Virus record (IMG/VR): IMGVR_UViG_2974555854_000001
Coordinates: 1 to 64,000 of that record
DNA length: 64,000 nucleotides
Strand: one strand, 5' to 3'
DNA from: a virus
Lineage: Duplodnaviria > Caudoviricetes
Every line of letters begins with the position of its first letter. Positions within the stretch are counted from its first letter, which is position 1. Under the pieces are notes generated by a model. It did no database searches. It was not told the DNA's origin and worked only from the letters and a program-made list of their open reading frames with translations. The translations under genes were made by a program, and so were the position numbers. Of the stretch, positions 6,116 to 63,780 are shown piece by piece.

Positions 6116-6144
6116 GACATAATTACGGATAAGCTGCATACTAT
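6116..6144 (+). promoter_or_regulatory. candidate mother-cell (sigma-E/K-like) promoter
   Basis: GACATAAT...CATACTAT; -10 fits CATA---T, spacer about 1 nt off consensus. Confidence 0.35.
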
Positions 6145-6165
6145 TTATTAAAGGAGCTGGTAAAG

Positions 6166-6291
6166 ATGAAAAATAACAAGTACGTCAAGAAAACGAAACG
6201 TGTGTTGTGGGACGGATCAATGATTATGTGTTTAGTCATCTTCTTCTTTATGGCAATAGGTGGATTAATATATTTCATTTCGAACCTCTAA
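6166..6291 (+). CDS. 41-aa single-pass membrane micropeptide (not in ORF track)
   Basis: AAAGGAG RBS; MKNNKYVKKTKRVLWDGSMIMCLVIFFFMAIGGLIYFISNL. Confidence 0.65.
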   Translation: MKNNKYVKKTKRVLWDGSMIMCLVIFFFMAIGGLIYFISNL

Positions 6292-6311
6292 TTAATTTTA
6301 GAGGTTTTTTT
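6283..6311 (+). terminator. intrinsic terminator
   Basis: AACCTCTA-ATTAATTT-TAGAGGTT plus T run. Confidence 0.75.
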
Positions 6312-6334
6312 ATTTTACATAGAAAAAGGAACGC

Positions 6335-6363
6335 TTGAACTGTATTACTATCTGTTATAAAAT
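6335..6363 (+). promoter_or_regulatory. sigma-A promoter
   Basis: TTGAAC-N17-TAAAAT, preceded by AGAAAAAGGAACGC, similar to the element before 3815. Confidence 0.65.
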
Positions 6364-6384
6364 AGTAAAAGAGGTGATACAAGG

Positions 6385-7101
6385 ATGGCAAGCCGTAAAA
6401 AACAGGGATTAGATAAGAAAAAATTACTTGCAGCAATGAAAAGATTCATCGGAACGACTCAAAACGATCCGGAATTCACAAAATACTTCAAAGTAGAAAA
6501 TGGTATCCATTATTCCGCAACGGATATGAAGAAGAATAACGCTATTGCAGCTTATATCTTTTTAGAAAACATTGAATTGTGGGAAAAGGGTACAGGGGTT
6601 GATTACTTCGCTAAACCGGAAACAGGTGAGAATATCAAGACAGTCAGTTCTATACCTGGATTTCCTGAAGTAAGGGGATTGTTTAGAGAAGGGTTTTTAA
6701 ACGGTTATAATGAGGTTATACTTAACTTAGATGATCTTGATGATTTCATAAAGCTTCACGAAGCGATGGAAAAGATATCGAAATTAAGCGGTAAAGATTT
6801 TGCTGCTGGATTTCATGTAATGGATTCTGAAGTTTGTTTTTGGAATGTACATTCAGCTGTTGATTTCAGTTACAAGTATAAGACGGATGTTACTTTTAAT
6901 GCTGATCCGAAAGTTCACCATTTCTTTTACGATCCGTTGGTTATGGTTAACATCTTCAAAGCGCTGAAAGATTTAAAAACTCTTACAACTTTAAAGATGC
7001 ATATAAAAGACAACAAAAGTCCGGTGTTCTTTACTGGAAACGATCATGACTACAAGGTTTACATGGCTATTCAAAGAAAAATAGTTAGGGATGGTGAATA
7101 A
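6385..7101 (+). CDS. DNA polymerase III beta-clamp-like protein (short)
   Basis: motifs SATD, GFPEVRGLF, FFYDPLVMVNIFKAL, KSPVFF parallel the clamp motifs ATD, FPDY, FNPKYLLDAL, LSP. Confidence 0.4.
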   Translation: MASRKKQGLDKKKLLAAMKRFIGTTQNDPEFTKYFKVENGIHYSATDMKKNNAIAAYIFLENIELWEKGTGVDYFAKPETGENIKTVSSIPGFPEVRGLFREGFLNGYNEVILNLDDLDDFIKLHEAMEKISKLSGKDFAAGFHVMDSEVCFWNVHSAVDFSYKYKTDVTFNADPKVHHFFYDPLVMVNIFKALKDLKTLTTLKMHIKDNKSPVFFTGNDHDYKVYMAIQRKIVRDGE

Positions 7102-7459
7102 GATGTTAGAAAAATTCATTCCGATGTTCGATATTGGTGAGAAGGTTATAACTGACGATGGTAGAGAAGGAAAGATAGTTGGTTGTAATGGTGATGTTCG
7201 TAAACGAAAGGGCCGCCAATGGGTTAATGAAAAATATATGGTTGAATTCAAAGATGGTTCTGAAAAGTGGATAAAGGTTGATGATCTTGAGCTGCTGATT
7301 GAATCGGATCACGAACCTGTTAAGGGCCTGGATAGTATCAACGGTTTACTGCAAGATTGTTTATTGTTATCAACTAAAGTACCGCTAGATGTCCGAATTA
7401 AGACCATCAAAGAAATGCAAAAAGGCGCTGAAGGTGAGGATTTAACATATGGATTATGA
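7091..7459 (+). CDS. SH3/Tudor-like barrel protein
   Basis: FDIGEKVITDDGREGKIVG...YMVEFKDGSEKWIKVDDLEL. Confidence 0.55.
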   Translation: MVNKMLEKFIPMFDIGEKVITDDGREGKIVGCNGDVRKRKGRQWVNEKYMVEFKDGSEKWIKVDDLELLIESDHEPVKGLDSINGLLQDCLLLSTKVPLDVRIKTIKEMQKGAEGEDLTYGL

Positions 7460-7646
7460 AATGACAGTTACTTACAAGAATGAAGAGGTAGATGTTTTTA
7501 ACGTACCTTTCGGTGCTCACGATTTGTTTCAATTTATTTCGATGGAATTAGATGCAATAATTTTCGATGATGAAGATGGAAAAGAACAAGTGATTTATCA
7601 AAGCGCTATCCAAAAGATTACGTTCCGTGATAAAGATGACGATTAA
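7449..7646 (+). CDS. hypothetical protein
   Basis: overlapping operon gene, 65 aa. Confidence 0.6.
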   Translation: MDYEMTVTYKNEEVDVFNVPFGAHDLFQFISMELDAIIFDDEDGKEQVIYQSAIQKITFRDKDDD

Positions 7647-8346
7647 TGAATTCTTAAATCAGATCGAAGAGTTCAATTCAGTAAATGAAAAGGTTCTCTT
7701 CTGTCAGAGCATCATCGACAACTCTTCAGATAAAGAAGTTGTACAAGCAGCTCAATCTTTCCTAGATTACACTAGGGATTGGGCTGTTTCTATGATCGAA
7801 AAGATCAAAGAAGGCGATGAAAATGCTTTTGACGAATTAATTAACGTTAAGGATATGCGTAATTTCATCCATCATTATGCTTATCACATCGATAAATTCC
7901 ATCACTTTAATTTTGACACAAATGAAATCGTGAATGAAATCATTGTACAAATGTTCTACCACGTTAAAAAGAATTACCGTATCTACCACGAACCGCATGA
8001 ATTAAGCTTGCTTATTGTTAGTATGCGCGGCTGGATCAGACAAAAGGTTTCGAAAATTCTAGTCGATAACAATATAGCTGATGGTCATGAAGAATTCAAT
8101 GAACGATCCGTTTCTGAAAAATGGAGAGACGAATCAGATATTACCCTGGAAGAAGTTTTAGAAAAATGCTTAACTGATGATGAAAGAATCGTTTTTGATT
8201 TACGTTTTCACGATGACTTAACCTTTGTGAAGATGGGCGAACAGTTAGGTAAAAGTAAAGATACCATGCAGCGTAAATATTTAGCAATTATAGATAAAAT
8301 TAAAAATTACTTGGAAAAAGTTAGTGATAAGGAGTGGTTAATGTGA
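7627..8346 (+). CDS. sigma-70-family RNA polymerase sigma factor (candidate late sigma)
   Basis: C-terminal region 4 LTDDERIVFDLRFHDDLTFVKMGEQLGKSKDTMQRK; divergent region-2-like middle. Confidence 0.65.
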   Translation: MIKMTINEFLNQIEEFNSVNEKVLFCQSIIDNSSDKEVVQAAQSFLDYTRDWAVSMIEKIKEGDENAFDELINVKDMRNFIHHYAYHIDKFHHFNFDTNEIVNEIIVQMFYHVKKNYRIYHEPHELSLLIVSMRGWIRQKVSKILVDNNIADGHEEFNERSVSEKWRDESDITLEEVLEKCLTDDERIVFDLRFHDDLTFVKMGEQLGKSKDTMQRKYLAIIDKIKNYLEKVSDKEWLM

Positions 8347-8828
8347 AACTGGAAGAATTATTCGCTTTACAAAGTCAACTAGATGAACATATAATAAAAA
8401 CTAAGGGATTGACTAAAAGTCAACAAATGACTGATAAAAAAGTCATTGCGTTTAAAGTTGAATTTGGTGAATTCTTGAATGAGGTTAAGGACTTCAAGTT
8501 TTGGAGTAACAAACCAATGTCCGAAAAAGAAGTAGTCCTTGAAGAATTTGTAGATGGTATACATTTCTTGCTTACAGTGTCATTGGATAGACAATATGAT
8601 CGTTGGATTAAAGAAGTCGAAGGTGAATACTACGTTAAGACTAAAACGTTGGATCAGCTTTCGATGGAAGTATTCAATAACCGATTAACGTCTGCTGGTG
8701 AAGTAACTGATGCATTCGAAATGATGCTTGCTATTGCACATAAGTTAGGTTTCAGCGAAGAGGATATTCTTGCGGCGTATGATCGTAAGAATGGAATTAA
8801 CCACGACAGACAAGATCAAGGTTACTGA
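8334..8828 (+). CDS. dimeric (all-alpha) dUTPase
   Basis: VEFGEFLNE..FKFWS, LEEFVDGIHFLL, YDRKNGINHDRQ motifs. Confidence 0.85.
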   Translation: MVNVKLEELFALQSQLDEHIIKTKGLTKSQQMTDKKVIAFKVEFGEFLNEVKDFKFWSNKPMSEKEVVLEEFVDGIHFLLTVSLDRQYDRWIKEVEGEYYVKTKTLDQLSMEVFNNRLTSAGEVTDAFEMMLAIAHKLGFSEEDILAAYDRKNGINHDRQDQGY

Positions 8829-8877
8829 AATTGACTAACTAGTGTATACCCTTCTGCAAATTTTTTAAAGCTTGTAT

Positions 8878-8906
8878 GCATATTTCCCCTAAAAAGGGAT
8901 ATATTA
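8878..8906 (+). promoter_or_regulatory. candidate sigma-F-type promoter
   Basis: GCATA-N14-GGATATATTA versus consensus GYATA-N15-GGnnAnAnTA. Confidence 0.45.
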
Positions 8907-8941
8907 TAAACAACTACTAAAATTTGTGGAGGGATTTTTTT

Positions 8942-9562
8942 ATGAATAACACGTTTGAGACTGTGGAGTGGACACACGAAGAGGACTTACAACTAGGCGA
9001 AACAATGTTAGAAGTAATTGCTAATGGCGGCACGGTAAGAGAAGGGTTCGAAAAATATGCCAGTCGGTCAGATGTCAGAACGGTTACAGCTTCTAAATTT
9101 AGATTCTTCAGTGTCGTTAAAAAGTTGGATGGTTACGAAGAGAGATATGAACAAGCTAGAGTTTTGGGAGAAAAGTTAAGAAGAGGGAAAAAGACTAAGA
9201 ATAAAGTCAAACCTTCACAAGTTGAAAAAATGATGAACGAAGATTACGTTGTTTCACCTGAAGATTTCATGGTACTTGCTAGAAAATTCGTTGAGCAGCA
9301 AAAGGAAAACGATGTTGAACTAGCCCTAACCGAAAAGGATAAGGAAATAAATGATCTGAAAGATAAGGTTGAACAACTTCAATATAAATTAAAACAATCT
9401 AATATAGACATCGATGAATTAAAAACTCAACTAGAAGATAAGACAGAACAATTAAAAATAATTTCAACAGCTTTTGGAATGATTAATAATATCCAGGAGA
9501 ATGATAAAGATAATCCTAAACCTTATAAAGTCGATAAACATAGTATGGTGGTAACAAGTTAA
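8942..9562 (+). CDS. rsfA: RsfA/YlbO-family sporulation transcription regulator homologue
   Basis: WTHEEDLQLGETMLEVIANGGTVREGFE...RTVTASKFRFFSVVK matches the RsfA N-terminal domain; coiled-coil C-terminus. Confidence 0.75.
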   Translation: MNNTFETVEWTHEEDLQLGETMLEVIANGGTVREGFEKYASRSDVRTVTASKFRFFSVVKKLDGYEERYEQARVLGEKLRRGKKTKNKVKPSQVEKMMNEDYVVSPEDFMVLARKFVEQQKENDVELALTEKDKEINDLKDKVEQLQYKLKQSNIDIDELKTQLEDKTEQLKIISTAFGMINNIQENDKDNPKPYKVDKHSMVVTS

Positions 9563-9593
9563 GTTCTCTTCCTTCTTGGGAGGGGCTTTTTTT
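9563..9593 (+). terminator. intrinsic terminator
   Basis: purine/pyrimidine hairpin plus T7 after the rsfA-like gene. Confidence 0.55.
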
Positions 9594-9630
9594 GTTTAAT
9601 TACATATAAAGGTACATCACTTTTGTATTA

Positions 9631-9939
9631 ATGGTAGTAACTATTAATGAAAAGGTGGTGTTTGTGGTGGAATGTGAAGTATTTAGAACTGCTGAAGAGG
9701 AATTCAGAGCTTCTTTAAAAAGTTGGGGTGAGGATGATAACAGGCCCTTTATTCGCGTAAAAGAAAACAAACGACAAGATAAGATTCACTATGAATTAAA
9801 ACATAAAAGGATTTTGGAAGAGAAATTGGGAATATCCAGGTTAACAGGAGATAGTCTTGATAACATCAATTTGATTGATGCTTTTGGTGATATGTATTCA
9901 CGTACAGGAAATATTAAAGATTTTAGTGGAGGTTTTTAA
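9631..9939 (+). CDS. hypothetical protein
   Basis: ORF; true start likely a GTG after AAAGGTGGTG. Confidence 0.55.
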   Translation: MVVTINEKVVFVVECEVFRTAEEEFRASLKSWGEDDNRPFIRVKENKRQDKIHYELKHKRILEEKLGISRLTGDSLDNINLIDAFGDMYSRTGNIKDFSGGF

Positions 9940-9940
9940 A

Positions 9941-10699: not shown

Positions 10700-10738
10700 C
10701 CACGTTTATTAAAGTTATATTACATTTTTGGAAAAACC

Positions 10739-10768
10739 GAGAAATAGGTACAACTTTATGGTATTTTA
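10739..10768 (+). promoter_or_regulatory. phage late promoter
   Basis: GAGAAA-N17-TATTTTA. Confidence 0.6.
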
Positions 10769-10938: not shown

Positions 10939-11565
10939 ATGAAAAAACTTGCACAAGTCGGTATCATATCGTCTGTACTACTAAGTTTCGGTTTTGCTGC
11001 TAATGCTGAAGCTGCTGAAACGCACACTGTAACAAGTGGTGACACTATGAACAAAATCGCAGCATCAAACGGCATGAGCCTGGATAGCTTAATCGCTAAA
11101 AATCCACAAATTAAAAATCCTAACATGATTTATGTTGGACAAGCTGTAAATGTAGGTGGACAAACTTCTGTTCCTGCTGCTACAACCGCTACGATTTCTT
11201 CTAACGGTATTTCTTCCAGTGATAAGGATTTAATGGCACGTTTGGTTAGAGCTGAAGCACAAGGAGAACCATACGCAGGAAAGGTAGCTGTAGCAACAGT
11301 TATTCTAAATCGTGTATCAAGTCCTGATTTCCCAAATACAATTAGTGCGGTAATTAATCAATCCGGTCAATTCTCACCTGTTAGTAATGGAGAAATAAAC
11401 AAAGCTGCTGATGCAGATTCTATCAGGGCCGTGAATGAAGCTATCACTAATAGAGGTCAAGGTGCTGGATCACTCTTCTTCTATAATCCAAAAACTAGTA
11501 CGAATACATGGATTACACATCGTCCGGTTACAATTGTAATCGCTAACCATACATTCGCTAAATAA
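10939..11565 (+). CDS. secreted LysM + Hydrolase_2 (SleB/CwlJ-type) cell-wall hydrolase
   Basis: signal peptide ending AEA; LysM HTVTSGDTMNKIA...NPNMIYVGQ; LMARLVRAEAQGEPYAGKVAVATVILNRV...QFSPV. Confidence 0.9.
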   Translation: MKKLAQVGIISSVLLSFGFAANAEAAETHTVTSGDTMNKIAASNGMSLDSLIAKNPQIKNPNMIYVGQAVNVGGQTSVPAATTATISSNGISSSDKDLMARLVRAEAQGEPYAGKVAVATVILNRVSSPDFPNTISAVINQSGQFSPVSNGEINKAADADSIRAVNEAITNRGQGAGSLFFYNPKTSTNTWITHRPVTIVIANHTFAK

Positions 11566-11572
11566 TCAACTT

Positions 11573-11602
11573 GATAAAAATTCCCAACGTACAGGTATTA
11601 AT
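11573..11602 (+). promoter_or_regulatory. phage late promoter
   Basis: GATAAA-N17-TATTAAT. Confidence 0.6.
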
Positions 11603-11654
11603 CTTTATAGATTAACGCTTGTGCGTTTTTATTTTGTTCAAAGGAGTGGATTAT

Positions 11655-12524
11655 ATGAGTGATAATAATTTCCAGGAGTATCTTACTAGGGATGATAAGA
11701 TATTCAAAACTAACGTCACGCTAGGTAAAGTAAACACAAAAGATTACGACTTGGAGCTGCTGGAATTAGCTGAACAACGTGTACAAAAAGGCACGAACAA
11801 GTCAGTAGAAACAGCATTAAAAAGCTTAGTCCATCTGAAGAAAGGAAAAGCTTCTATTGGTAGAAAGTCTGATCCTAACGAAATTGAATTAGATGAATAT
11901 GGTCTTCATCCTGATTTGTATACACCTCAACAGATGAATTTGATTAAAAAAATCATTGAATCGTATTATACAACCGCTGATGTTTCTACACCTTTCCAAC
12001 AATCAGGTGTAATTCGTTTAGCCAAACTCGAAGCTAACATTGCTGAAGTTGAAATTCTTGTTGCTAAGAAAAAATTGAAAGAGGATATCGAAAAGCTTGA
12101 GAAATTAAATACAATGCATCTTAAATTATCAGACAGTTTGAAATTAACAACCAAACAAGCTTCTGATGGTGCTAAAGGCGAAGATATTTTATCTAATGCT
12201 TGCATCGCTTTTGAAGAAACGTTCTCTAATGACAAATTCGAATTCCCTAGCATTGAATTAAGGGATCGTTTGCAAGAAATTCTTATCTCGAAAGCTGATC
12301 TTATCGTAAAACTCATTGGTGAGTCAAAAACTTATTATCATTTTAAGAAAGCTTTGATCGAAAATACCGGCCTGGAAATGTCTGATGCAGAAGATATCGG
12401 TGAGTTTACAATTGCTGAATTATTTGATTGTTTCAAGATTTTCGAAGATAGAAAAATGATCGAAGACAAGAATGAAACGACTTATGATGATTCAATCGTT
12501 CACCGTAAAGATGAAGGGTTGTGA
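11655..12524 (+). CDS. putative terminase small subunit
   Basis: directly upstream of the terminase large subunit; helical; SPbeta-like arrangement. Confidence 0.5.
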   Translation: MSDNNFQEYLTRDDKIFKTNVTLGKVNTKDYDLELLELAEQRVQKGTNKSVETALKSLVHLKKGKASIGRKSDPNEIELDEYGLHPDLYTPQQMNLIKKIIESYYTTADVSTPFQQSGVIRLAKLEANIAEVEILVAKKKLKEDIEKLEKLNTMHLKLSDSLKLTTKQASDGAKGEDILSNACIAFEETFSNDKFEFPSIELRDRLQEILISKADLIVKLIGESKTYYHFKKALIENTGLEMSDAEDIGEFTIAELFDCFKIFEDRKMIEDKNETTYDDSIVHRKDEGL

Positions 12525-14239: not shown

Positions 14240-15592
14240 TTGGAAGAAGAATTAGCAAATGGAAGTTATAAACCCAAACTACCTGATACAATCGCTTCGC
14301 ATGACAAAGAAGGCTATGATCGAATTGCTTCAGTTTCCAATGTGAAATTTGAAAGTAATGAATTGTTAGCTGACTATCAAAACAATTTCAAGAAGATTGT
14401 TCAATTGGCCCATTTCTACACCGATAAGGTAGGGGTAATCAAATCAGCTATTCGTGTTTATGTGACGTTTACCGCTGGTGACATCGTTTTAGATGGTGGG
14501 CAAAAGAAAAACCTGGAATTTATAGAAGAATTCAATAAGAAGGTTAAAATGAATAAGGTTGTTCGTCAATCTACTCAAGACCTTTACAAAACAGGAAATT
14601 TCTTTTGGTATCGTGAGACTGAAGGAACTGAAACCGTTTGGATTCATCAATTCTCACCAATCGATACCAATTTAAAGGGCCATCGCAGAGATCGTCCGAT
14701 TATGACCGTTAATTTAGACACTGATCCGGAAACTATACCACCAGGACTTACACGTAATGCTTTAGGTGAGTATAGCGTACCAATCGATAAAGCTTACCAT
14801 TGTGCTATTGATCGTGAAGCCTATACACGATACGGAAAAACAATTCTAACTCCCACATTTGAACCTGTACAACATATACAAGATTTAATGGATATGGAGA
14901 AAGAAACTGTAAAGGAAGTTGTTGAATTCTTAATCATCTTTACATTAGGTGACAAAGATCGTCCTGCTGGTGAGAAACAATTGCAAGCATTGAGCGATAA
15001 AGTTAAGAATTTGAAATCGACTTCACGTTTAGTTGGTAATCATACGTTGAAAGCTGAAGCAATTAAACCTGATTTAGCTGTCTTCAATCCTGAAAAGTAT
15101 GAAGTGCCAATGCAAATGTTACTACAGTCACTAGGAATTGTCCCTTCCATTTTCACCGGTGAAGGCTCATACGCAACTAGTTCTGTTGGTATGCAGAGCG
15201 CTAAACAGACAATGGAATCAGCAAGGAAAGAAATTGTTGAAGCATTGACTGATTTATATAGAGACGTTGCGAAAGAAGCAGGATTAAACCCTGATAAAAA
15301 CCCGACTGTTTCTCTAGGATCAATCGCACTAAATGACGAAAAAATTAAACATGCTATTCTTCGTGATCTATACCTTGATGGTATCATTTCTGCTGAAACA
15401 TACGCAGCTGAAAGTGGTTACGATTTAGAACATGAGCAAATGGAAATTAAAGATGAAAACAGCAAGTTTGACATTCAACCACGTCAAATGTCTTCTACAT
15501 TATCTAATAAAGACGGTGGAAGACCTGAAGAAGATGGTGAGGTTAACAAGCCTGACCAAAGCAAGAAACCTTCATCTGATGGTATGGACTAA
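14240..15592 (+). CDS. portal protein
   Basis: 450 aa after terL; GVIKSAIRVYVTF, LYKTGNFFWY, LGIVPSI, GIISAETY pattern. Confidence 0.8.
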   Translation: MEEELANGSYKPKLPDTIASHDKEGYDRIASVSNVKFESNELLADYQNNFKKIVQLAHFYTDKVGVIKSAIRVYVTFTAGDIVLDGGQKKNLEFIEEFNKKVKMNKVVRQSTQDLYKTGNFFWYRETEGTETVWIHQFSPIDTNLKGHRRDRPIMTVNLDTDPETIPPGLTRNALGEYSVPIDKAYHCAIDREAYTRYGKTILTPTFEPVQHIQDLMDMEKETVKEVVEFLIIFTLGDKDRPAGEKQLQALSDKVKNLKSTSRLVGNHTLKAEAIKPDLAVFNPEKYEVPMQMLLQSLGIVPSIFTGEGSYATSSVGMQSAKQTMESARKEIVEALTDLYRDVAKEAGLNPDKNPTVSLGSIALNDEKIKHAILRDLYLDGIISAETYAAESGYDLEHEQMEIKDENSKFDIQPRQMSSTLSNKDGGRPEEDGEVNKPDQSKKPSSDGMD

Positions 15593-19705: not shown

Positions 19706-20233
19706 ATGACTTCATATTTATATGATGATGGTAATGGTCTTCGCACATCAGCTCGTGTCGAACCCACAACAGGGAAACCAATCACAGACGTTTCCAATAT
19801 GGTTAAAACTAAAAGTGGTCTATGGATACCACAAACAGGTACAGAAGATGGCGCTGCTAATATTCAAGTAGCTGGATCAGACGTTATGTTACCTACACAA
19901 ATGCAAAGCAAACTTTCAACAGTTATTCAAACACATGTGAACACCGTTGTTGCTTTAAGTGCAAATAACACAAGTTCTTATCAAGATGTTAGTGCATGGT
20001 CAGATATCACTATGTCTTTCCTTAATTCAGCTACAGCTACTTGTCAAGTTGATATCATGTGGTCACATGACGGGGTTTCTGCTTTCTTTACTGAAAATGC
20101 ACTTGCTTCTGCTTCTCGTGTAAATGGTTTTTACCAATTTAAAACAAAAGCTAAATATGCAGCTGTTAAAGTTACTAATGGTGATGGTACAGCAGCTAAA
20201 ACGATGAACTCATGGTTATTCTTATCACTATAA
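19706..20233 (+). CDS. putative fibre/appendage protein
   Basis: Thr/Ser/Ala-rich, beta-sandwich-like C-terminus; late cassette. Confidence 0.5.
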   Translation: MTSYLYDDGNGLRTSARVEPTTGKPITDVSNMVKTKSGLWIPQTGTEDGAANIQVAGSDVMLPTQMQSKLSTVIQTHVNTVVALSANNTSSYQDVSAWSDITMSFLNSATATCQVDIMWSHDGVSAFFTENALASASRVNGFYQFKTKAKYAAVKVTNGDGTAAKTMNSWLFLSL

Positions 20234-41972: not shown

Positions 41973-42002
41973 GAGATTTTGTATTTTAATATCTGTATTA
42001 AT
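41973..42002 (+). promoter_or_regulatory. phage late promoter (lysis cassette)
   Basis: GAGATT-N17-TATTAAT. Confidence 0.7.
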
Positions 42003-42677: not shown

Positions 42678-43865
42678 GTGGTAAATATGGCTTATTCATT
42701 AGATGATTTATTGAAGAAAGCGCAACCCAAATTAGAAGGTGTTCATCCATCGGTTCAGGCATGTGCTCTACAATTAATTACAAAAGCTTATGCTAAAGGT
42801 TATAAATTGATTATCACACAAGGACTTCGTACAATCGCTGAACAAAACAAGTTATATGCAAAGGGCCGCACAACAGCACAATTAAGAGCTGTAGGAATCA
42901 CTGGAATCGCTGGTAATCCTTCTGCTGCAATTGTTACTCGTGCAAAAGGCGGTACATCTTATCATAACTACGGTTTAGCTTTTGACATCGGTATTTTACG
43001 AACAGATGAAAAAGATGTTGATTGGACTGATTCAAAATATCGTCCTATCGGTGCTTTAGGAAAGGAATTAGGTTTAGAATGGGGTGGAGATTTCAAATCA
43101 ATTAAAGATACTCCACACTATCAATTATCTTTCGGCCTTTCTATTGCTGATCTTCAAGCCGGTAAACGTCCAAAAGGTTCAACTGTTTCTGTTCATCCAG
43201 GAGTTCAAGTTGTTAAATTGGGTTCTGAAGGCGCATTAGTTAAAGATGTACAAATCAAACTTAATAAATTAGGTTTTGATTGTGGTGATCCGGATGGAAT
43301 CGCCGGTAAGAAAACTGTAGCTGCTATCGAAGACTTCCAGGCTAAATTTGGTCTTTCTAAAGATGGAATTGCTGGACGTGACACTTTAGCGAAACTAAAC
43401 GAATTAGCTGCTGAAAAAGCTGAAGAAGTTAAAGAAGAAGCTGAAAAGAAAGATTTACCTAAAGTTGAATCGTTCGGCGGTACTCCAATTCGTGTAACTA
43501 CTATCACTGATGCAGGAGTTTATGCACACGCTGACATTTCCGGAAAGTCTCGTACAATCAAAAAAGGTACAACTTTTAGAGTATATGGAAACACTTATGC
43601 AGCATGGGCCGTTAATGATGGTTTTGTTCAAATGAAAGATGTTGAACCTCAACCAATGACAATTCATACCGGCGGCGTTAACATCGCTATGCAAACTGAA
43701 TTGAAGCGTTTTATGTCAGGTCTTAACAAAGATACTGTATTAATCTTCAAATCAGAAGGTGGTAATCCTTACGCTGAAATTACTGCTAAAGGCTTAGTTT
43801 TAGTTGAGATTCTTCGTTACCTAAAAGCTAACAAATGGTATTACAAAGAAGCTCCAAAAGCTTAA
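42678..43865 (+). CDS. endolysin: M15 L-Ala-D-Glu peptidase + peptidoglycan-binding domain
   Basis: GLRTIAEQNKLYA, SYHNYGLAFD, WGGDF...DTPHYQL; PG-binding VKDVQIKLNKLGF...DGIAG. Confidence 0.9.
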   Translation: MVNMAYSLDDLLKKAQPKLEGVHPSVQACALQLITKAYAKGYKLIITQGLRTIAEQNKLYAKGRTTAQLRAVGITGIAGNPSAAIVTRAKGGTSYHNYGLAFDIGILRTDEKDVDWTDSKYRPIGALGKELGLEWGGDFKSIKDTPHYQLSFGLSIADLQAGKRPKGSTVSVHPGVQVVKLGSEGALVKDVQIKLNKLGFDCGDPDGIAGKKTVAAIEDFQAKFGLSKDGIAGRDTLAKLNELAAEKAEEVKEEAEKKDLPKVESFGGTPIRVTTITDAGVYAHADISGKSRTIKKGTTFRVYGNTYAAWAVNDGFVQMKDVEPQPMTIHTGGVNIAMQTELKRFMSGLNKDTVLIFKSEGGNPYAEITAKGLVLVEILRYLKANKWYYKEAPKA

Positions 43866-43875: not shown

Positions 43876-44145
43876 GTGATACAGATGGACAAAGGTACTT
43901 TAATTCGCACGGTGCTTTTAGTAGTGGCCCTGATTAACCAAACGTTAATTATGGTGGGTAAACCTGTTTTACCTGTTGATGAACACCAATTAACAAACCT
44001 AATCGACAACGCTTACTTATGGGGATCGACTGCTTATTCAATCGTTATGATCCTGGTAGCGTGGTATAAGAATAATTTCGTTACTAAGAAAGGTAAGGCT
44101 CAAAAAGAAGTTCTGAAGAAGCACGGTCTTACTAAAGCAAAATAA
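43876..44145 (+). CDS. SPP1-type holin
   Basis: DKGTLIRTVLLVVALINQ...AWYKNNFVTKKG. Confidence 0.85.
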   Translation: MIQMDKGTLIRTVLLVVALINQTLIMVGKPVLPVDEHQLTNLIDNAYLWGSTAYSIVMILVAWYKNNFVTKKGKAQKEVLKKHGLTKAK

Positions 44146-45044: not shown

Positions 45045-45105
45045 TATAAATACCTCCTATTCAATTGGTTAACCTTATTATAAATGGTAAATTCCTATAA
45101 GTCAA

Positions 45106-47400: not shown

Positions 47401-47553
47401 TCATTCACTCTCCTGGACTTCAAAATAATAGTTATTAGCGGCTACATAAAAGCCATTCATAAATGCTGTATATAAATCAAATGGATTTTGAACTGTTGTT
47501 ACAGCTAGCAATCCATTGAGATAACCACGTTTAAAAGCAATCATATCGTACAT
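47401..47553 (-). CDS. hypothetical 50-aa protein (not in ORF track)
   Basis: TGATG coupling on both sides; MYDMIAFKRGYLNG... Confidence 0.5.
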   Translation of the reverse strand: MYDMIAFKRGYLNGLLAVTTVQNPFDLYTAFMNGFYVAANNYYFEVQESE

Positions 47554-48254
47554 CATGCTATCACCAAATCAAAATGTGCTGCTGCTTTTGGTCTGATTCT
47601 TTTCTTGATGATACGACTAACATGTGCTTGACTGATGCCTAATCCTGCTGCAATTTCCTTCTGACCTTTATCCTGGATAAGTTGCTCAATTATGTACTTC
47701 TCGTTGTCAGGTAAAGTATCGAAGAATGCGTTAACTTCAACCATTGAATAGTCTTGTTTGAATCCGAAAAACGTTGATAAAAGATCATCTTCACTATCAT
47801 CAGCGAATACCGGCTTGTCCAAACTTTTAACAGTCATATTCAACGAATAATTAATTGCATCGTTAACTTCTTTTTCAGTTAACTTTGTGTCTTGCATAAT
47901 TTCTTTAACTTCTTTTTCGAAAGAACTTTCTCTATTGATTTTAGAAAAATGTTCTCTTACGTGACGTGGGTAGCGGATAGAAGTTGTTCTCTCCCTAGCC
48001 CAATGAAACCATTCGCCCATCATAACCTGAACAGCGTATGTTGAAAATTTAACGTCCGGTTTTTTGATCGGATCAAATCTAGCACAAGCGTTTAATAAAC
48101 CGATGCACACAACTTGCTCAATGTCTTCCTTTGAGTAGTTAGTGTGATTTTCGTCCTTAATCCAATATCCAGCTAATTTTTCATTCATTACGAAACCAAC
48201 TAGACCTTTGTTTTCTGCAAATAAAGCGTTTCTTTCCTCAATTGATCTTAACAT
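47553..48254 (-). CDS. SigF/SigG-like sporulation sigma factor homologue
   Basis: EDIEQVVCIGLLNACARFDP...FSTYAVQVMMGE...SIRYPR, SLDKPV, QKEIAAGLGISQAHVSRI. Confidence 0.88.
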   Translation of the reverse strand: MLRSIEERNALFAENKGLVGFVMNEKLAGYWIKDENHTNYSKEDIEQVVCIGLLNACARFDPIKKPDVKFSTYAVQVMMGEWFHWARERTTSIRYPRHVREHFSKINRESSFEKEVKEIMQDTKLTEKEVNDAINYSLNMTVKSLDKPVFADDSEDDLLSTFFGFKQDYSMVEVNAFFDTLPDNEKYIIEQLIQDKGQKEIAAGLGISQAHVSRIIKKRIRPKAAAHFDLVIA

Positions 48255-48369
48255 AATTTAAGTTCCCCCTTAAATTTTGGTTATAAAGTTAATACGTGTT
48301 GCATACCCTATGTGATGTAAGTTAATTATATACCGGTTTTTTTCAAATTTCAAGAATTATTTTCTAATT

Positions 48370-58994: not shown

Positions 58995-59008
58995 ATCACC
59001 TCATAATT

Positions 59009-60043
59009 TTATAGTTCATCAAAACCGTTACTTGATCCAGCTTTCTTGTAATCATCCGGTTTACGTTCGAAGAAGTCAGTTTTCTTAGAACCTTCTGTTT
59101 CGTAAAATTGAATCCAACGTAGCGGATTTGAACGATAACCTTCAAAAATGCGTTCTTTACCAAATCCTAATTCATTTACACGTTTGTTTGCCATGAATTT
59201 AACGTAGTCCTGAACTTCAACAACGTTAAGCCCTTCAATTTTGTTGCCAATGATGTATGAAGCCCAATTAATTTCTAATTCAGCTGCTTTTGTAAAAGTA
59301 TTAATAACAAACTGCTCCATCTTTTTCTTATCAATTTGCGGATTTTCTTCTAAAACTGCTTTAAACAAGTCGCAGAAGAAACCTACGTGAATTTGTTCAT
59401 CACGATTGATAAAGTTAATCATCTTAGCAGTAGCTAACATCTTTTTGTTTCTTGCTAAATTGTAGAAAAATGCAAATCCACTGTAGAAGAATAGCCCTTC
59501 CAGGATAACGTCATAAACCATTGACTCAAGGAAATTTTCTACTGTCTTGTCATCAGTGAACTTTTCATAACCTTTTGCTAGGAAATCATTTCGTTCACGT
59601 AAAACTTCATCTGTACGCCAATAATCGAATGTTTTATCTTGTACAGCGCGGTTAACTAGTGATGATAAAACGTAAGTATAAGATTCATTATGAACAACTT
59701 CCTGGAAAGCAAGTGTGATTAATGTTGCATTTAGTGATGAATCAGTCACATAATCAGCAATACGGCCCACATAATCCGATTGTACAGAATCTAAAAATGC
59801 AAGCAAACCGATAATTTTAAGGAAAGCTTCTTGTTCGTGATCCGTCAAATGAGGAAATTGTTTAATATCGGTGCTCATATCGACTTCATCAGCGAACCAT
59901 GTGTTACTAATCATTTTCTTATATTTCGTACGTGCGAATTGATAACGGATATCTGACCAATTCAGAATGTTTGAGCTTTCACCGTTTACAATTCCTGTTG
60001 ATTTATTAGGAGCACTTACATCGTACAATTTACGTTCTTTCAT
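59009..60043 (-). CDS. nrdB: class I ribonucleotide reductase beta subunit
   Basis: FLDSVQ, EVVHNESY, LEGLFFYSGF, RDEQIH. Confidence 0.92.
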   Translation of the reverse strand: MKERKLYDVSAPNKSTGIVNGESSNILNWSDIRYQFARTKYKKMISNTWFADEVDMSTDIKQFPHLTDHEQEAFLKIIGLLAFLDSVQSDYVGRIADYVTDSSLNATLITLAFQEVVHNESYTYVLSSLVNRAVQDKTFDYWRTDEVLRERNDFLAKGYEKFTDDKTVENFLESMVYDVILEGLFFYSGFAFFYNLARNKKMLATAKMINFINRDEQIHVGFFCDLFKAVLEENPQIDKKKMEQFVINTFTKAAELEINWASYIIGNKIEGLNVVEVQDYVKFMANKRVNELGFGKERIFEGYRSNPLRWIQFYETEGSKKTDFFERKPDDYKKAGSSNGFDEL

Positions 60044-60094
60044 TTAACTCTTCCTCTCTTTTTCAAAAATAAGAAGGGGAATTACCCCCTCCTG

Positions 60095-62425
60095 TTAACT
60101 ATGACAAGATTCACATTCATCAATTACTTCTTGTGATTGACTTCGTACATAATAAGTTGTCTTCAGTCTTTCTCTCCATGCTGTCATGTGTAAGTCAAGC
60201 AGCTCTTTAGCTTTGATTTCACTTGGAACATAAAGGTTGAATGAAACAGCTTGGTCAATATGTTTTTGACGTGCTGCATTCTGTAAGATGCTCCAATTTT
60301 GGTCAATTACATAAGCTGTTTTGTAATACCATTGGTTAGTAGGGTTAATTCCTGGTGCTGTTCTAACCACACGGTATTTACCTTTCTCTTCTTGATACAC
60401 TTTACGGAACACTGGATCAATACTAGCTGTCGTTCCTGCAATGATAGCTGTTGAAGAGTTAGGAGCTACCGCCATTAGGTAAGCATTTCGAATACCGTAT
60501 GTTGATACATCAAGTGCTAAATGATCCCAACGAGTAGGATATTCTTCACTGATATCATCATTCAAAATGTAACCTTTACGAGCGAAGTAATCTCCTGTAT
60601 GCCATTCAGAACCTTCGAATAATGGGTATTCATCTTTTTCTTTTGCTAAATTCATACTAGCTTTGATTGTATAATAAGCAATATCTTCGTACAAACTATC
60701 ATTAAAGTCTACTGCTTCTTGACTTTCCCATCTGATCTTCTTCTGAACAAGCAGATCATGTAGACCGTATGTTCCTAAACCAATAGCACGGTAACGATGG
60801 TTAGTATATTTTGCAACAGCTAAAGGCAAGTCGTTAAGATCGATAACGTTATCCAGCATACGAACCTGGATGTTAATTAATCGTTCTAACACGTCATCAG
60901 TAACAGCACGAGCTAAGTTAATGGAAGACAAGTTACATACTACCATATCACCTAACACTTTTTCTTGAGTCGAACGGCCTGTTTTCAGGTCTAATTTTTC
61001 ATCAAGGTAATAAGTTTGTGATTGATTTTGTGTAATTTCTGTACATAAGTTAGAACAATAAATCATACCTTCGTGTTTCTGTGAATTCTCACGGTTAACT
61101 TGGTCACGATAAAACATATATGGTGTACCTGTTTCCAATTGAGAACGCATGATACCTTTCATGATATCAATAGCAGGAACAACACGCTTATCAAGTTCGT
61201 TGTTATTCACACATTCATAATAGAATTCGCGGAATGAACCACTGATCTTACGATTACCTTCTGCATCAAACTCTTCAACTTCATCATAAAAATCTTCAAT
61301 TCGTTTCCCTGTTACTTTATAGACCTGGTGAGGATCGAATAAATACCAATCTCCACGAGCATCAACTTTCTCCATGAATAAATCAGGGATACAAACGCCG
61401 GTGAAAATGTCACGAGCACGTTTTCTTTCATCACCTGTATTTAATCGAAGATCAAGGAAAGAAAAAATGTCTTGATGCCATACGTCCAAATAGACCGCCA
61501 TTGCACCTTGACGTTGCCCTAACTGATCCACACTGATAGCAGTTTCGTTGATAAGTTTAGTCCACGGTACTGTTCCGCCACAAACACCTTTGAATCCTTT
61601 GATATCTGAACCTAATGAACGAACATGGCCCATATAAACCCCGATACCGCCGCCGTTTTTACTTAATTGAGCAATATTATCAAGCGTTCCGTAGATAGCT
61701 TTAAGATCATCGCCCATTGTATCGATAAAGCAGCTTGATAACTGACCATAACTCTTACCAGCGTTAGCTAATGTTGGTGTAGCAACGGTCATATACAGGC
61801 TAGATAAGGCCCAATATGCTTCTTGCACCAACGCGACACGTTTTTCAGGCTTTTCCATAACCATTAATGTCATTGCAATAATCATAAAACGTTCTTGTGG
61901 TAATTCAAACTTATTTTTCGCATGGTCAGTAGCTAAATATTTATCTTCTAAAGCTAATAATCCTGCATAAGTGAAAAGCTTGTCCATATCAGGATTAATC
62001 ATATCACTGAAGCGGTTAATCTCTTCTTCTGTATATTCAGCTAGAAGACCTTTGTTATAAATACCTTCTTGAGCTAACTTTTTAATCAAGGTATATAACG
62101 AACCGTACTTCTCTTTAGGATCGTAACAACGATTTTTAGCAGCTTTCTTATAAAGATCACGTAAAAAGAATTCAGCTGATAAATATGTCCAGTCAGGTTC
62201 TTCTACTGAAGTGTTCTCACTACTAACCATAAGCAGCAAGTTAGTGATTTGATCTGCTGTATATTCTTCTTTAAACTGAATGCTACCAATAACACTTGCT
62301 TTGAAACGTCTTAACGAAGCATCAGGAATATCAATACCTTCAGCAGCACTATCGATATATCTTTCTAAGCGGTACGGATCAAACGGTAAGCTACGAGCGC
62401 CGTTATCTTTAATGATTTGTGTCAT
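60095..62425 (-). CDS. nrdA: class I ribonucleotide reductase alpha subunit with an ATP-cone-like N-terminus
   Basis: ATPTLAN, QLSSCF, SNLCTE, APNSST, TTYY, C-terminal CESC. Confidence 0.95.
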   Translation of the reverse strand: MTQIIKDNGARSLPFDPYRLERYIDSAAEGIDIPDASLRRFKASVIGSIQFKEEYTADQITNLLLMVSSENTSVEEPDWTYLSAEFFLRDLYKKAAKNRCYDPKEKYGSLYTLIKKLAQEGIYNKGLLAEYTEEEINRFSDMINPDMDKLFTYAGLLALEDKYLATDHAKNKFELPQERFMIIAMTLMVMEKPEKRVALVQEAYWALSSLYMTVATPTLANAGKSYGQLSSCFIDTMGDDLKAIYGTLDNIAQLSKNGGGIGVYMGHVRSLGSDIKGFKGVCGGTVPWTKLINETAISVDQLGQRQGAMAVYLDVWHQDIFSFLDLRLNTGDERKRARDIFTGVCIPDLFMEKVDARGDWYLFDPHQVYKVTGKRIEDFYDEVEEFDAEGNRKISGSFREFYYECVNNNELDKRVVPAIDIMKGIMRSQLETGTPYMFYRDQVNRENSQKHEGMIYCSNLCTEITQNQSQTYYLDEKLDLKTGRSTQEKVLGDMVVCNLSSINLARAVTDDVLERLINIQVRMLDNVIDLNDLPLAVAKYTNHRYRAIGLGTYGLHDLLVQKKIRWESQEAVDFNDSLYEDIAYYTIKASMNLAKEKDEYPLFEGSEWHTGDYFARKGYILNDDISEEYPTRWDHLALDVSTYGIRNAYLMAVAPNSSTAIIAGTTASIDPVFRKVYQEEKGKYRVVRTAPGINPTNQWYYKTAYVIDQNWSILQNAARQKHIDQAVSFNLYVPSEIKAKELLDLHMTAWRERLKTTYYVRSQSQEVIDECESCHS

Positions 62426-62436
62426 AATGACCTCCA

Positions 62437-62820
62437 TTATTTCGTTTTTAAATAAGAAGACGGTTTGATTTCAATGTGTTCATATACCTCTTCTTCAGTT
62501 AACTTTCCTGCATCAATCAATGTTTGAACTTTGTTCAGATCAACGTCATCGTTACGGCACAAGTCGAGAAGTCCACGATCTTTAAGGAAAAACTTCAGCG
62601 ATTCTTTCTGCTTCTTCGTTTCCATATCAATAACCTGGACTCCACCGTAATTAGTTTTGGCATACTCACCGATTGACTGTACTTCGGTCAGGGCCGACTT
62701 CTTGTGCTTTTCTTTTAACTTCTTAGCTGCTGATTCAAGTGATGAATAAAAGCGCCATGCTTCAGTATTATTACTGAATTGCATTTGGTTAATCAATTGA
62801 AGAATTTCTCTTCCATCCAT
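62437..62820 (-). CDS. hypothetical protein
   Basis: GGAGG RBS, 127 aa. Confidence 0.65.
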   Translation of the reverse strand: MDGREILQLINQMQFSNNTEAWRFYSSLESAAKKLKEKHKKSALTEVQSIGEYAKTNYGGVQVIDMETKKQKESLKFFLKDRGLLDLCRNDDVDLNKVQTLIDAGKLTEEEVYEHIEIKPSSYLKTK

Positions 62821-62866
62821 ATAAAAACCTCCATATAAAAGAGCTTATATGAAGATTTTACATGAT

Positions 62867-63055
62867 TTACTTAGATTTTACCAGCTTTTCTTCTTGCATT
62901 TTAGCGATTATTTCACTCAAATTCTTAGAACCTGAACATTGACCTGAACGGTATCCATAATAATATGTAATTACCGCGATAATTTCTCGTAAGGTTTCTT
63001 CATTTTCCCCTTCTAATAAACCACGTAATTCATCAGAAGTGCTGTTCTTTTTCAA
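62867..63055 (-). CDS. hypothetical protein
   Basis: TTG start after AGGGGG; first gene of the - arm. Confidence 0.55.
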   Translation of the reverse strand: MKKNSTSDELRGLLEGENEETLREIIAVITYYYGYRSGQCSGSKNLSEIIAKMQEEKLVKSK

Positions 63056-63097
63056 TAAGGTTTCCCCCCTTTGTTCGTTACTAAAAGTTACTTTATC

Positions 63098-63126
63098 ATT
63101 ATAATACAGAATTGAAATAAAACAAG
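63098..63126 (-). promoter_or_regulatory. sigma-A promoter for the replication arm
   Basis: TATAAT with a TTGTTT/CTTGTT -35 at 16-17 nt spacing. Confidence 0.55.
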
Positions 63127-63278
63127 CCCCTTTATCACATTTGTATTAATTTTGAAATATTTCTCGATTTTTTGTAATGGTACGTGCAATATTTAGATTA
63201 TCGCCCATATATTAGGATTATGAAAAGGAGTTATTAACTACTTAACAACTTCTTCTCACCTACTTAATAAGAAATGGA

Positions 63279-63554
63279 GTGATTAGCTTGTCTAGCAAGT
63301 ACATCCGAAAACCTGTAGTGTTCAATCGTGAATCAGCTTGGCATATGAACATCCTGGAACGTATTGAAGGTGAATCGAACAACTTTTCCGGTTATGTAAT
63401 GTCTATCCTTAAAGAACACTTTGACAGAAAGTTGCCACTTGAGCCAATTATTAAATCTGATCCAGTAAAAACAGAAAAAGAGCAACCGAAATCAGCTGCT
63501 CCTTCCTTCCAAAAACCTGTTAATAACACACCGCCAAAATTATTTGGAAAATGA
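63279..63554 (+). CDS. ribbon-helix-helix-like DNA-binding protein (partition adaptor-like)
   Basis: KPVVFN...NFSGYVMSILKEHF followed by a disordered tail. Confidence 0.5.
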   Translation: MISLSSKYIRKPVVFNRESAWHMNILERIEGESNNFSGYVMSILKEHFDRKLPLEPIIKSDPVKTEKEQPKSAAPSFQKPVNNTPPKLFGK

Positions 63555-63652
63555 ATCGTGGTACTTGCAATTTTTGAATATGAGTAGCATAAACTGTTTG
63601 TGTAACTGAACTTGTGAATGGAGCAAACAGTTTAAATACCACTTCATAGTCA

Positions 63653-63718
63653 TTAAAACGGCCATAACCCCACTAATAAGCCTGTTAACCCAATGCTAAT
63701 TAAGATTGCTTCTACCAT
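63653..63718 (-). CDS. 21-aa hydrophobic micropeptide (not in ORF track)
   Basis: AAGGGAGTGA RBS; MVEAILISIGLTGLLVGLWPF. Confidence 0.55.
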   Translation of the reverse strand: MVEAILISIGLTGLLVGLWPF

Positions 63719-63750
63719 CTTTAAATCACTCCCTTAATTGTTGTTGAACT

Positions 63751-63780
63751 TAGTATGTACGCCTTGTTCAAATCCTATTC
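63751..63780 (-). promoter_or_regulatory. sigma-G-type promoter
   Basis: GAATA-N18-CATACTA, matching the sigma-G consensus including spacing. Confidence 0.6.

Follow-up and report, generated by a model that had tools for sequence, protein, structure and literature searches.

Sigma factors of the sporulation type are established in phages, as an earlier note on the DNA described here had stated, and the targets of such factors inside the phage itself are known for hardly any phage. The only case that we found in the literature is Fah, a phage of Bacillus anthracis in which a SigF-like sigma factor is reported to direct RNA polymerase to a viral promoter (Minakhin 2005, as summarised in PMC4113786). 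SigF and SigG homologues are also found in other phages of spore formers, namely Eldridge, SP-10 and Goe3, and for such proteins the similarity to SigF predicts mimicry, as a 61.6% identical sigma factor acts as a mimic whereas those with 24-32% identity hardly affect sporulation genes (PMC9429907). The subject of the present analysis is a stretch of 64,000 nucleotides (nt) of phage DNA (the window; positions 1 to 64,000 of the IMG/VR record IMGVR_UViG_2974555854_000001), for which the earlier note had proposed a sporulation programme made of five parts: a SigF/G-like sigma factor, an RsfA homologue behind a sigma-F-type promoter, a membrane peptide of 21 amino acids (aa) behind a sigma-G promoter, a 41-aa membrane peptide behind a sigma-E/K-like promoter and a SleB/CwlJ-family hydrolase. 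All five parts exist; they do not, however, form one circuit. The RsfA/GerR-like regulator and the 21-aa peptide are preceded by two conserved forespore-type promoters, which might be read by a SigF-derived sigma factor encoded by the same phage outside the window.

As in Fah, a close relative of sigma-F is encoded by the phage, which would direct host RNA polymerase to promoters inside the phage genome and might be open to control by the anti-sigma factor SpoIIAB. It differs from Fah in that the SigF-like domain is fused to an extension of about 395 aa and that a second sigma factor of the SigB/F/G type as well as an ECF-like one are present. In addition, the Fah promoter is described as a late structural one, whereas the candidate targets here, known from sequence alone, are the RsfA/GerR-like regulator and the 21-aa peptide. 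The study of the Eldridge, SP-10 and Goe3 factors by Schwartz et al. 2022 (PMC9429907) differs again, since host genes and spore yield were tested there and no cognate phage promoters are described.

The closest relatives are the Bacillus megaterium siphophages Slash, Staley and Stahl. They belong to the genus Slashvirus. The window covers the left four fifths of a phage genome that is 80,798 bp long and bears direct terminal repeats, and 84% of the window aligns to Slash at about 85% identity, with similar values for Staley and Stahl; on its alignments the phage is a Slashvirus-like Bacillus megaterium siphophage. The records of these three phages (KF669661, KF669663 and KP696447; PMC3861416, PMC3853053) hold the gene set at about 85% nucleotide identity, including an RsfA-family protein, a SleB-like protein, three sigma factors and a LysM/SCP protein, and because their annotations name the parts, the gene-level findings are already public. 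Their labels are quoted below with the features concerned; further deposited labels are an approximately 600-aa 'RNA polymerase sigma factor' as well as the LysM/SCP protein. The announcement of Slash mentions four sigma/transcription factors together with a SleB homologue, and its authors suggest that the phage is temperate (PMC3861416); the genome studied here likewise encodes an integrase and an antirepressor. The 21-aa gene, in contrast, is without annotation in the Slash, Staley and Stahl records, and no promoters are named in them. What is new, on comparative evidence, is therefore a pair of putative forespore-type promoters and a 21-aa peptide family conserved across the phage group, and in addition the predicted identity of the SigF-like sigma factor, the reading of the 41-aa unit as one of sigma-A and the apparent late-class wiring and dispensability of the SleB-like gene. 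As relatives we used the Slash group, Basilisk, PBC4, MaeS (MT362618) and metagenomic contigs, including two referred to below as L017 and L018; MaeS is the only distant relative with a full genome, the metagenomic relatives being short contigs.

The consensus of sigma-F in the B. subtilis literature is GCATA-N14/15-GGnnAnAnT, and that of sigma-G is GnATr-N17/18-CATnnTA. For sigma-F, sigma-G, sigma-E and sigma-K the familiar B. subtilis strings were used throughout, the 14/15-nt spacing alone being taken from a paper (PMC5942855). In a regular-expression scan of the whole genome the counts for all four consensus patterns lay at chance level, and the scan for sigma-E and sigma-K gave no well-placed match. 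The sigma-F-type pattern, for instance, matched once (at the promoter of the RsfA-like gene) against 1.6 matches expected. It is the placement and conservation of the two predicted forespore-type promoters, and not their number, that exceed chance: in the whole genome only two forespore-type matches are intergenic and on the sense strand, one before the RsfA-like gene and one before the 21-aa gene. A home-made expectation-maximisation motif search on intergenic segments gave AT-rich, unspecific motifs only and was superseded by direct inspection and targeted scans.

The unit of the 21-aa peptide consists of the following elements:

63751-63780, minus strand: sigma-G-type promoter, GAATA-N18-CATACTA, 32 nt 5' of the ATG
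63653-63718, minus strand: gene of a 21-aa hydrophobic membrane peptide (MVEAILISIGLTGLLVGLWPF), without annotation, with AAGGGAG 5' of the ATG at 63718
63591-63633, minus strand: conserved hairpin 3' of the open reading frame (ORF), found by covariation and followed by UUUAUG; probably a terminator

Between the window and the Slash group the ORF differs at 9 synonymous and 0 non-synonymous sites, a pattern that shows purifying selection on the predicted peptide. By tblastn a 21-aa ORF with 71% identity was found in MaeS, likewise without annotation, and none of the deposited records has an annotated feature at this locus. Four further metagenomic lineages, found via homologues of the neighbouring 156-aa membrane protein, contain a 21-codon ORF in the same antisense position (M[VI]E[VAI][IV]LIS[IAT]GLT..L[VI]...P[FW]). 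Scans with degenerate patterns for the ORF returned only Staley and Stahl in viral_contigs and gave 0 matches in genome_contigs and metagenome_contigs.

The promoter of MaeS reads GTATA-N18-CATATTA and lies at the same distance from the start codon as in the window, and in the four metagenomic lineages G[AT]AT[AG] is followed by exactly 18 unalignable nt and then by CATAATA, AATAATA or CAAGATA. The geometry G[AT]AT[AG]-N18-[Ca]A[Ta]nnTA is hence found in the same place in 7 lineages whose spacer sequences cannot be aligned. The hairpin has 10 pairs, 4 of them with compensatory changes, and three different stem sequences occur among the lineages; in the alignment 94% of the cells are paired, a value equalled by 0 of 500 shuffles and compared with 32-57% in slid controls. 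Folding of the whole 21-aa transcript was no better than that of shuffled sequences (z = -0.9), so that the terminal hairpin alone is supported. Both elements of a sigma-G promoter, their spacing, the placement before a gene and the conservation were found together at this site, and with geometry, ORF and hairpin recurring in seven lineages the claim of a sigma-G consensus promoter driving a 21-aa peptide held. On these comparisons the unit is real, an autonomous mini-gene whose putative promoter keeps the positions that define sigma-G.

The second forespore-type promoter lies in the early region, in the following neighbourhood:

8878-8905, plus strand: sigma-F-type promoter, (T)GCATA-N14-GGATATATT, with GCATA at 8878 and GGATATATT at 8897
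8942-9562, plus strand: RsfA/GerR-family transcription regulator of 206 aa, with Myb-like N-terminus and coiled coil (phrog_16084); Slash-group label RsfA family transcription factor
7627-8346, plus strand: ECF-like sigma-family protein of 239 aa (sigma70-ECF superfamily 40.4 bits against a cut-off of 42.9; phrog_1740, 5e-58); Slash-group label ECF subfamily sigma

The end of the promoter is separated from the start codon of the RsfA-like gene by 37 nt. In the Slash group the -35 and -10 elements are identical to those of the window and all four substitutions fall into the spacer, and in L017 and L018 the gene is preceded by TGCATA-N14-GGTTATATT, with equal spacing and different spacer letters, while their RsfA-like proteins are only 49-51% identical to that of the window. 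As -10 element, G[GA]wTATAwT recurs in Basilisk and PBC4 (GTATC-N15-GAATATACT) and in MaeS (GGTTATAAT). The elements, spacing, placement and conservation expected for sigma-F were thus found as TGCATA-N14-GG(A/T)TATATT in the window, Slash, L017 and L018. For the host sigG promoter, which is read by sigma-F, the 14-nt spacing has been described as the conserved state (PMC5942855).

The regulator itself matches GerR (NF010535) with E=1.5e-10 over residues 15-180 and the RsfA family (TIGR02894) with E=6e-8 over residues 16-166, at 41 bits against a curated cut-off of 257 and 33 bits against 126.45, respectively. As both conserved regions are matched, membership in the RsfA/GerR group is confirmed at the family level by these profiles, with scores below the curated cut-offs. 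Homologues in related phages have higher family scores, namely Basilisk with 58.7 bits, PBC4 with 66.6 bits and MaeS with 78.6 bits to GerR. As the protein matches its MaeS homologue with E=8e-12, it is linked to GerR transitively through MaeS. A word-indexed protein search with the RsfA-like protein returned phage-like relatives only and neither a bacterial RsfA nor a bacterial GerR, and for this reason the family membership rests on the NCBIfam profiles. With RsfA/GerR of B. subtilis (TIGR02894) the phage protein shares a Myb-like N-terminal DNA-binding region and a coiled-coil C-terminal part; it differs in its score (33 bits against 126) and in that the phage clade always adjoins the genes of an ECF-like sigma factor and a dUTPase. 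Basilisk, PBC4, MaeS, L017 and L018 all have the three genes in the order ECF-like sigma, dUTPase, RsfA-like, and this neighbourhood has been noted earlier for Basilisk-like phages (PMC6145125). With the family match and a promoter kept in relatives, the earlier claim of an RsfA homologue behind a sigma-F-type promoter was borne out. The host rsfA gene is transcribed by sigma-F and sigma-G.

Three sigma-family proteins are encoded by the phage, the ECF-like one and two of the SigB/F/G type:

69593-71455 of the genome, outside the window, minus strand: SigF-like fusion of 620 aa, found by scanning the entire genome with the SigBFG model
47553-48254, minus strand: 233-aa sigma factor of the SigB/F/G subfamily with diverged recognition helices, from profile and structure matches; Slash-group label 'sigma factor SigB'
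48325-48353, minus strand: sigma-A-type promoter of the 233-aa sigma gene, TTGAAA-N17-TATAAT, an 11/12 match

The first approximately 225 residues of the 620-aa protein score 201.7 bits with the SigF/SigG subfamily and 189 with spore_sigF, compared with 96 for SigB; the scores lie under the equivalog cut-offs of 311-321. This N-terminal part matches Geobacillus SigF (1l0o_C) with 191 bits and about 51% identity, is 43.9% identical to the Eldridge sigma factor annotated as SigF and is nearly identical to SigF in regions 2.4 and 4.2, GEIQRF and SQVQ(V/M)SR occurring in both; it is followed by a C-terminal extension of about 395 residues. By these matches the fusion is the truly SigF-like sigma factor of this phage. 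A SigF-like sigma factor is also present in MaeS (143 bits against 55 for SigB, with GEIQRF and SQVQVSR), together with both promoter types. The MaeS counterpart of the 620-aa protein is a 480-aa protein encoded at the position of the window's 233-aa sigma gene. Its record names MaeS a 'Microcystis phage', yet the gene order as well as the RsfA/GerR-like protein, the SigF-like sigma and the 21-aa unit are Bacillus-phage-like, and because gene order and sporulation-type genes are common with Bacillus phages the recorded host looks doubtful.

It was the 233-aa protein that the earlier note had called SigF/G-like. It is indeed a member of the sigma-70 family with regions 2 and 4 (PF04542 26.4 bits, PF04545 24.6 bits, both barely over their cut-offs), but the specific likeness to SigF/G did not stand: the protein reaches 113 bits with SigBFG against a cut-off of 234, and spore_sigF (78) and SigG (63-69) hardly differ from SigB (75). 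The best solved structure is 8x6g_H, a 256-aa sigma factor, with 59 bits, ahead of Geobacillus SigF 1l0o_C with 49 bits. In place of the GEIQRF of SigF, region 2.4 contains GEWFHW, and in region 4.2 the SQVQxSR of SigF is replaced by SQAHVSR. Because the scores are generic for SigB/F/G and 8x6g_H precedes SigF, the label was rejected, the curated cut-offs lying above the scores and the helices being unlike those of SigF. With about 25-30% identity to SigF the 233-aa protein falls into the low-similarity class that has almost no effect on sporulation genes and little or no effect on spore yield (PMC9429907). Measured in the same way, the 620-aa protein qualifies as a candidate mimic, unlike the 233-aa protein. 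The gene of the 233-aa sigma lies in the replication module between the genes of a RecB-like nuclease and a thymidylate synthase. Among eleven stretches compared with Slash (genome-wide average 85% nucleotide identity) it is the least conserved, with 71% nucleotide and 65% amino-acid identity. Together with the SigF fusion (78% nucleotide identity) and the RsfA-like gene (80%) it changes faster than the genome average, while the promoters of these three regulators and the micropeptide units are conserved above it.

Taken together, the parts suggest a self-contained sub-circuit in which the SigF-derived sigma factor of the phage would switch on the RsfA/GerR-like regulator and the 21-aa peptide, and to this reading we give a probability of roughly one half. 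A circuit of sigma factor, regulator and micropeptide, as the earlier note had it, is thus reasonable as a sub-circuit, to which the named 233-aa sigma, the 41-aa unit and the SleB-like gene do not belong. It is favoured because MaeS has both promoter types and a SigF-like sigma factor, and it would be self-contained and able to run in vegetative infected cells because the sigma factor that would read it is the phage's own, as in the Fah precedent. In detail, three promoter classes would run the transcription of the phage. Host sigma-A promoters would drive early and replication genes, including the 41-aa unit and the genes of two of the phage sigma-family proteins. A late class, GAGAAA-N17-TATTAAT, would stand before the SleB-like gene as well as the operons for packaging, structure and lysis; its factor is presumably among the sigma-family proteins encoded in the window, with the ECF-like protein as a candidate. 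The third class would have two members, both of the forespore type, before the RsfA/GerR-like regulator and the 21-aa membrane peptide, and would most likely be read by the 620-aa fusion. By its ancestry this class could be activated in the forespore by host sigma-F or sigma-G, too, and the SigF-like sigma factor of the phage might in turn be held by the host anti-sigma factor SpoIIAB, so that cross-talk with host sigma-F, sigma-G and SpoIIAB appears possible. We infer the assignment of sigma factors to classes, the timing and any effect on sporulation from what can be observed directly, i.e. the parts, the promoter sequences and their conservation.

Several points weigh against the sub-circuit. 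The use and timing of the promoters are predictions from the DNA only. The promoter of the RsfA-like gene can be read as a weak sigma-A promoter (TGCATA-N17-TATATT, 8/12), although this reading would leave the conserved GG unexplained. The terminator scan found no terminator between the dUTPase gene and the RsfA-like gene, and the latter may also be reached by read-through from upstream early promoters. The joint presence of the SigF-like sigma factor and the promoters can be checked in the Slash group and MaeS only, as the other relatives are short contigs, and Basilisk and PBC4, which keep the -10 element, are not among the 45 SigF-like tblastn matches listed (there were 117 further records). 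Finally, two promoters would make a small regulon for a sigma factor that is dedicated to it and bears a 395-aa extension.

Two other explanations have to be considered. The first is an integrated sporulation programme, in which mainly host sigma-F and sigma-G would read the forespore-type promoters and sigma-E/K the 41-aa unit in sporulating infected or lysogenic cells, and in which the regulator, the micropeptides, the SleB-like and YkwD-like proteins and the phage sigma factors would alter the spore yield, trap the phage genome or time the exit at germination. At all specified positions the two promoters agree with the consensus of host sigma-F and host sigma-G, and the 14-nt spacing of the sigma-F-type promoter is that conserved in the host sigG promoter (PMC5942855). 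The RsfA/GerR, SleB and YkwD families are tied to endospore formers, and the 21-aa unit lies antisense in a membrane/ATPase cassette. Integrase and antirepressor suggest a temperate life style (PMC3861416), and spore yield can be lowered by SigF/G homologues of phages (PMC9429907). On the other hand, the sigma-E and sigma-K match counts are at chance, the 233-aa sigma has non-SigF helices and a SigF identity in the range with almost no effect on sporulation genes, Stahl was, according to its record, propagated on an asporogenous host, and a functional tie between the parts is hypothetical. The same wiring would moreover work in vegetative cells via the phage's own sigma factor, as is reported for Fah (PMC4113786, citing Minakhin 2005). 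Two of the proposed members, the 41-aa unit and the SleB-like gene, speak against such a programme in their own right.

The 41-aa unit comprises:

6114-6142, plus strand: promoter TTGACA-N17-CATACT, a 10/12 match to the sigma-A consensus with perfect -35
6166-6291, plus strand: gene of a 41-aa single-pass membrane peptide in the early region, with a good ribosome-binding site
6282-6307, plus strand: intrinsic terminator, from the terminator scan, kept in L017

The unit is real with regard to ORF and terminator. In Slash, Staley and Stahl the encoded peptide is 100% identical and the gene shows 2 synonymous changes; the gene is labelled hypothetical in Staley and Stahl, and a homologue with 67.5% identity and the same terminator occurs in L017; the ESM Atlas yielded nothing useful for it. 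The proposed sigma-E/K-like promoter, in contrast, is not supported, as sigma-A fits better and L017 replaces CATAC by an extended -10 element, TGgTATAAA, at the same spot. For a sigma-K reading the spacing would be 18 instead of 16-17, and a sigma-E-like reading is possible on paper. Situated among many sigma-A promoter-terminator units of the early region, the 41-aa gene is, from its promoter, best taken as an early gene under sigma-A.

The early promoters form a family with near-consensus sigma-A hexamers and a shared spacer element TTATAGG (TTGAC(T/A)..TTATAGG..TATAAT), whose members lie at:

710-738 and 5547-5576: TTATAGG-type early promoters
45045-45105, minus strand: TTATAGG-type early promoter
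79148-79358 and 79587-79653 of the genome, minus strand: TTATAGG-type early promoters

The SleB-like gene and the late promoter class are located as follows:

10939-11565, plus strand: SleB/CwlJ-family cell-wall hydrolase with N-terminal LysM, from Pfam domains and structure alignment; Slash-group label 'SleB-like' secreted amidase
10739-10768, plus strand: weaker late-class copy, GAGAAA-N17-TATTTTA, at the head of the SleB-like gene's leader
11573-11602, plus strand: late-class promoter GATAAA-N17-TATTAAT, 5' of a 301-aa gene (11619-12524) that precedes the large terminase gene
14174, 19644, 23118, 23399 and 26782, plus strand: further late-class promoters with fixed 17-nt spacing
45679, minus strand: late-class promoter with fixed 17-nt spacing
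41973-42002, plus strand: late-class promoter 5' of the lysis cassette
42678-43865 and 43876-44145, plus strand: lysis cassette with endolysin (L-Ala-D-Glu peptidase) and holin, respectively, from the Slash annotation

That a SleB/CwlJ-family hydrolase starts at 10939 proved correct: Hydrolase_2 (PF07486) scores 103.7 bits against a cut-off of 27 and LysM 45.6 bits, and in the alignment to the SleB structures 4fet/4f55 (94 bits) the catalytic Glu is kept, with AEAQGEP opposite GESRGEP. The SleB equivalog (TIGR02869) cut-off of 236.5 is not reached at 147 bits. The N-terminal domain of SleB is a peptidoglycan-binding domain, unlike the LysM of the phage protein. The SleB-like protein of the Slash group has been described before (PMC3861416).

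Of the 11 copies of GTATTAAT in the genome, 8 are intergenic, in sense orientation and 40-200 nt 5' of start codons, compared with a share of about 5% for intergenic sense positions in the sequence as a whole. Together with its upstream half GTATTAAT forms GAGAAA-N17-TATTAAT, the candidate late promoter consensus of the phage group. The set has a fixed 17-nt spacing and lies 30-60 nt 5' of late cistrons; behind it are the 301-aa gene, a gene of 450 aa at 14240, those with starts at 19706, 23171, 23461 and 26849, and also the lysis cassette. The SleB-like gene follows its own copy by an AT-rich leader of 170 nt which is 96.7% identical to Slash, compared with 85% genome-wide. In L017, a close metagenomic relative, this leader and a late-type promoter (GAGAAT-N17-TATTTAA) are kept, but other sequence and a 61-aa ORF stand in place of the gene, from which we conclude that the SleB-like gene is an accessory insert behind a late promoter. 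Judged from its promoter, it is not wired to a sporulation sigma factor. In the SleB-like slot of L017 (12040-12160) about 120 nt of G+C-richer, structured-looking sequence precede the 61-aa ORF. With the 41-aa promoter better read as sigma-A and the SleB-like gene late and dispensable, an integrated sporulation programme seems unlikely.

The second alternative holds that there is no forespore-type regulon at all. All sigma-family proteins would then serve the early-middle-late cascade of the lytic cycle, the RsfA-like protein would be a core regulator expressed from sigma-A promoters, the SleB-like protein an auxiliary endolysin, and the elements of the 21-aa unit would belong to some other control, e.g. 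a type I toxin-antitoxin-like pair or an antisense-regulated subunit of the neighbouring membrane machine. That cluster J phages of both B. cereus and B. megaterium keep the order ECF-like sigma, dUTPase, RsfA-like suggests a core regulatory role, and phage sigma factors are often temporal switches (PMC6145125). SleB/CwlJ-type cell-wall hydrolases may be reused as lysins (PMC10294663). The -10 element of the RsfA-like gene does contain a sigma-A-like TATAwT; its conserved GG and the TGCATA -35 element at 14 nt, however, are not needed by sigma-A. Likewise, the 21-aa promoter matches sigma-A at about 7/12 positions, yet its sigma-G-type positions G-AT-N18-CA..TA are kept in seven lineages, and both the Slash group and MaeS have a SigF-type sigma factor whose recognition helices are intact.

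As to a toxin, the surroundings of the 21-aa gene have to be taken into account. Very short hydrophobic toxins are known from Ibs/Sib of E. coli and from prophage-borne type I systems of B. subtilis. The 21-aa peptide resembles them in being about 20 aa long and almost wholly hydrophobic, in its location on a mobile element and in the possibility of convergent or antisense transcription; it differs in its forespore-type promoter, the lack of matches to antitoxin RNA families (0 in Rfam, which gave 0 matches anywhere in the phage genome) and the absence of an identified antitoxin RNA. The gene lies antisense within a membrane/ATPase cassette and is convergent with, and would be fully overlapped by, any transcript entering the plus-strand operon. 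Opposite to it, at 63555-63595 on the plus strand, is the block GGTAC-TTGCAA-N17-CATAAAC, conserved as far as MaeS, which may be the promoter of the plus-strand operon, with a transcript antisense to the whole 21-aa gene, or else may be the mere tail of the terminator. Of what a type I system would need, the small hydrophobic peptide is in keeping, and the block on the opposite strand might be a promoter. The operon divergent from the 21-aa gene (63800-63904 of the window and 63901-67002 of the genome) encodes a 34-aa membrane peptide, the 156-aa membrane protein (phrog_13699), a 46-aa peptide and an 829-aa protein (phrog_5156). The cassette, including the 829-aa protein, gave no Pfam match and only PHROGs of unknown or general function; it is kept in all relatives fetched and adjoins a serine recombinase gene in two metagenomic contigs. 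On balance, the absence of any forespore-type regulon appears improbable.

A few further observations concern the rest of the genome. The 9-mer TATAATTAA is present in six copies within about 110 nt (72188-72296 of the genome, outside the window), in an AT-rich divergent region between the operon of the SigF fusion and that of the antirepressor and a YkwD-like protein, which is at least 97% identical to Slash. Two more copies, inverted to each other, lie at 10766 and 10797 of the window, within the SleB-like gene's leader. These copies may constitute an operator array. The YkwD-like protein, a LysM-CAP protein encoded 3' of the antirepressor gene (73328-73930 of the genome, plus strand), scores 205 bits with the YkwD family against a cut-off of 171, a family of spore formers. 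A PAPS-reductase-like protein is encoded in the same genome.

That Slash/MaeS-type phages keep a dedicated forespore channel, in which, after enclosure of the phage genome in the forespore of a sporulating infected or lysogenic cell, host sigma-F and then sigma-G, or the SigF-like fusion once freed from SpoIIAB, switch on regulator and peptide and thereby bring about spore-carried dormancy or a timed exit at germination, we regard as unlikely.

The 233-aa sigma, the 41-aa peptide and the SleB-like gene, and with them most of the claimed programme, belong to an ordinary early/late cascade. What is left is a tractable phage group of B. megaterium with two short, deeply conserved promoters of the forespore type, one before a regulator from a family of endospore formers and the other before a 21-aa peptide family without annotation in the deposited records. 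Both promoters are clonable targets for asking whether the phage senses being inside a developing spore. If true, the forespore channel would be the first defined cis-regulatory basis for the 'spore hitch-hiking' of a phage.

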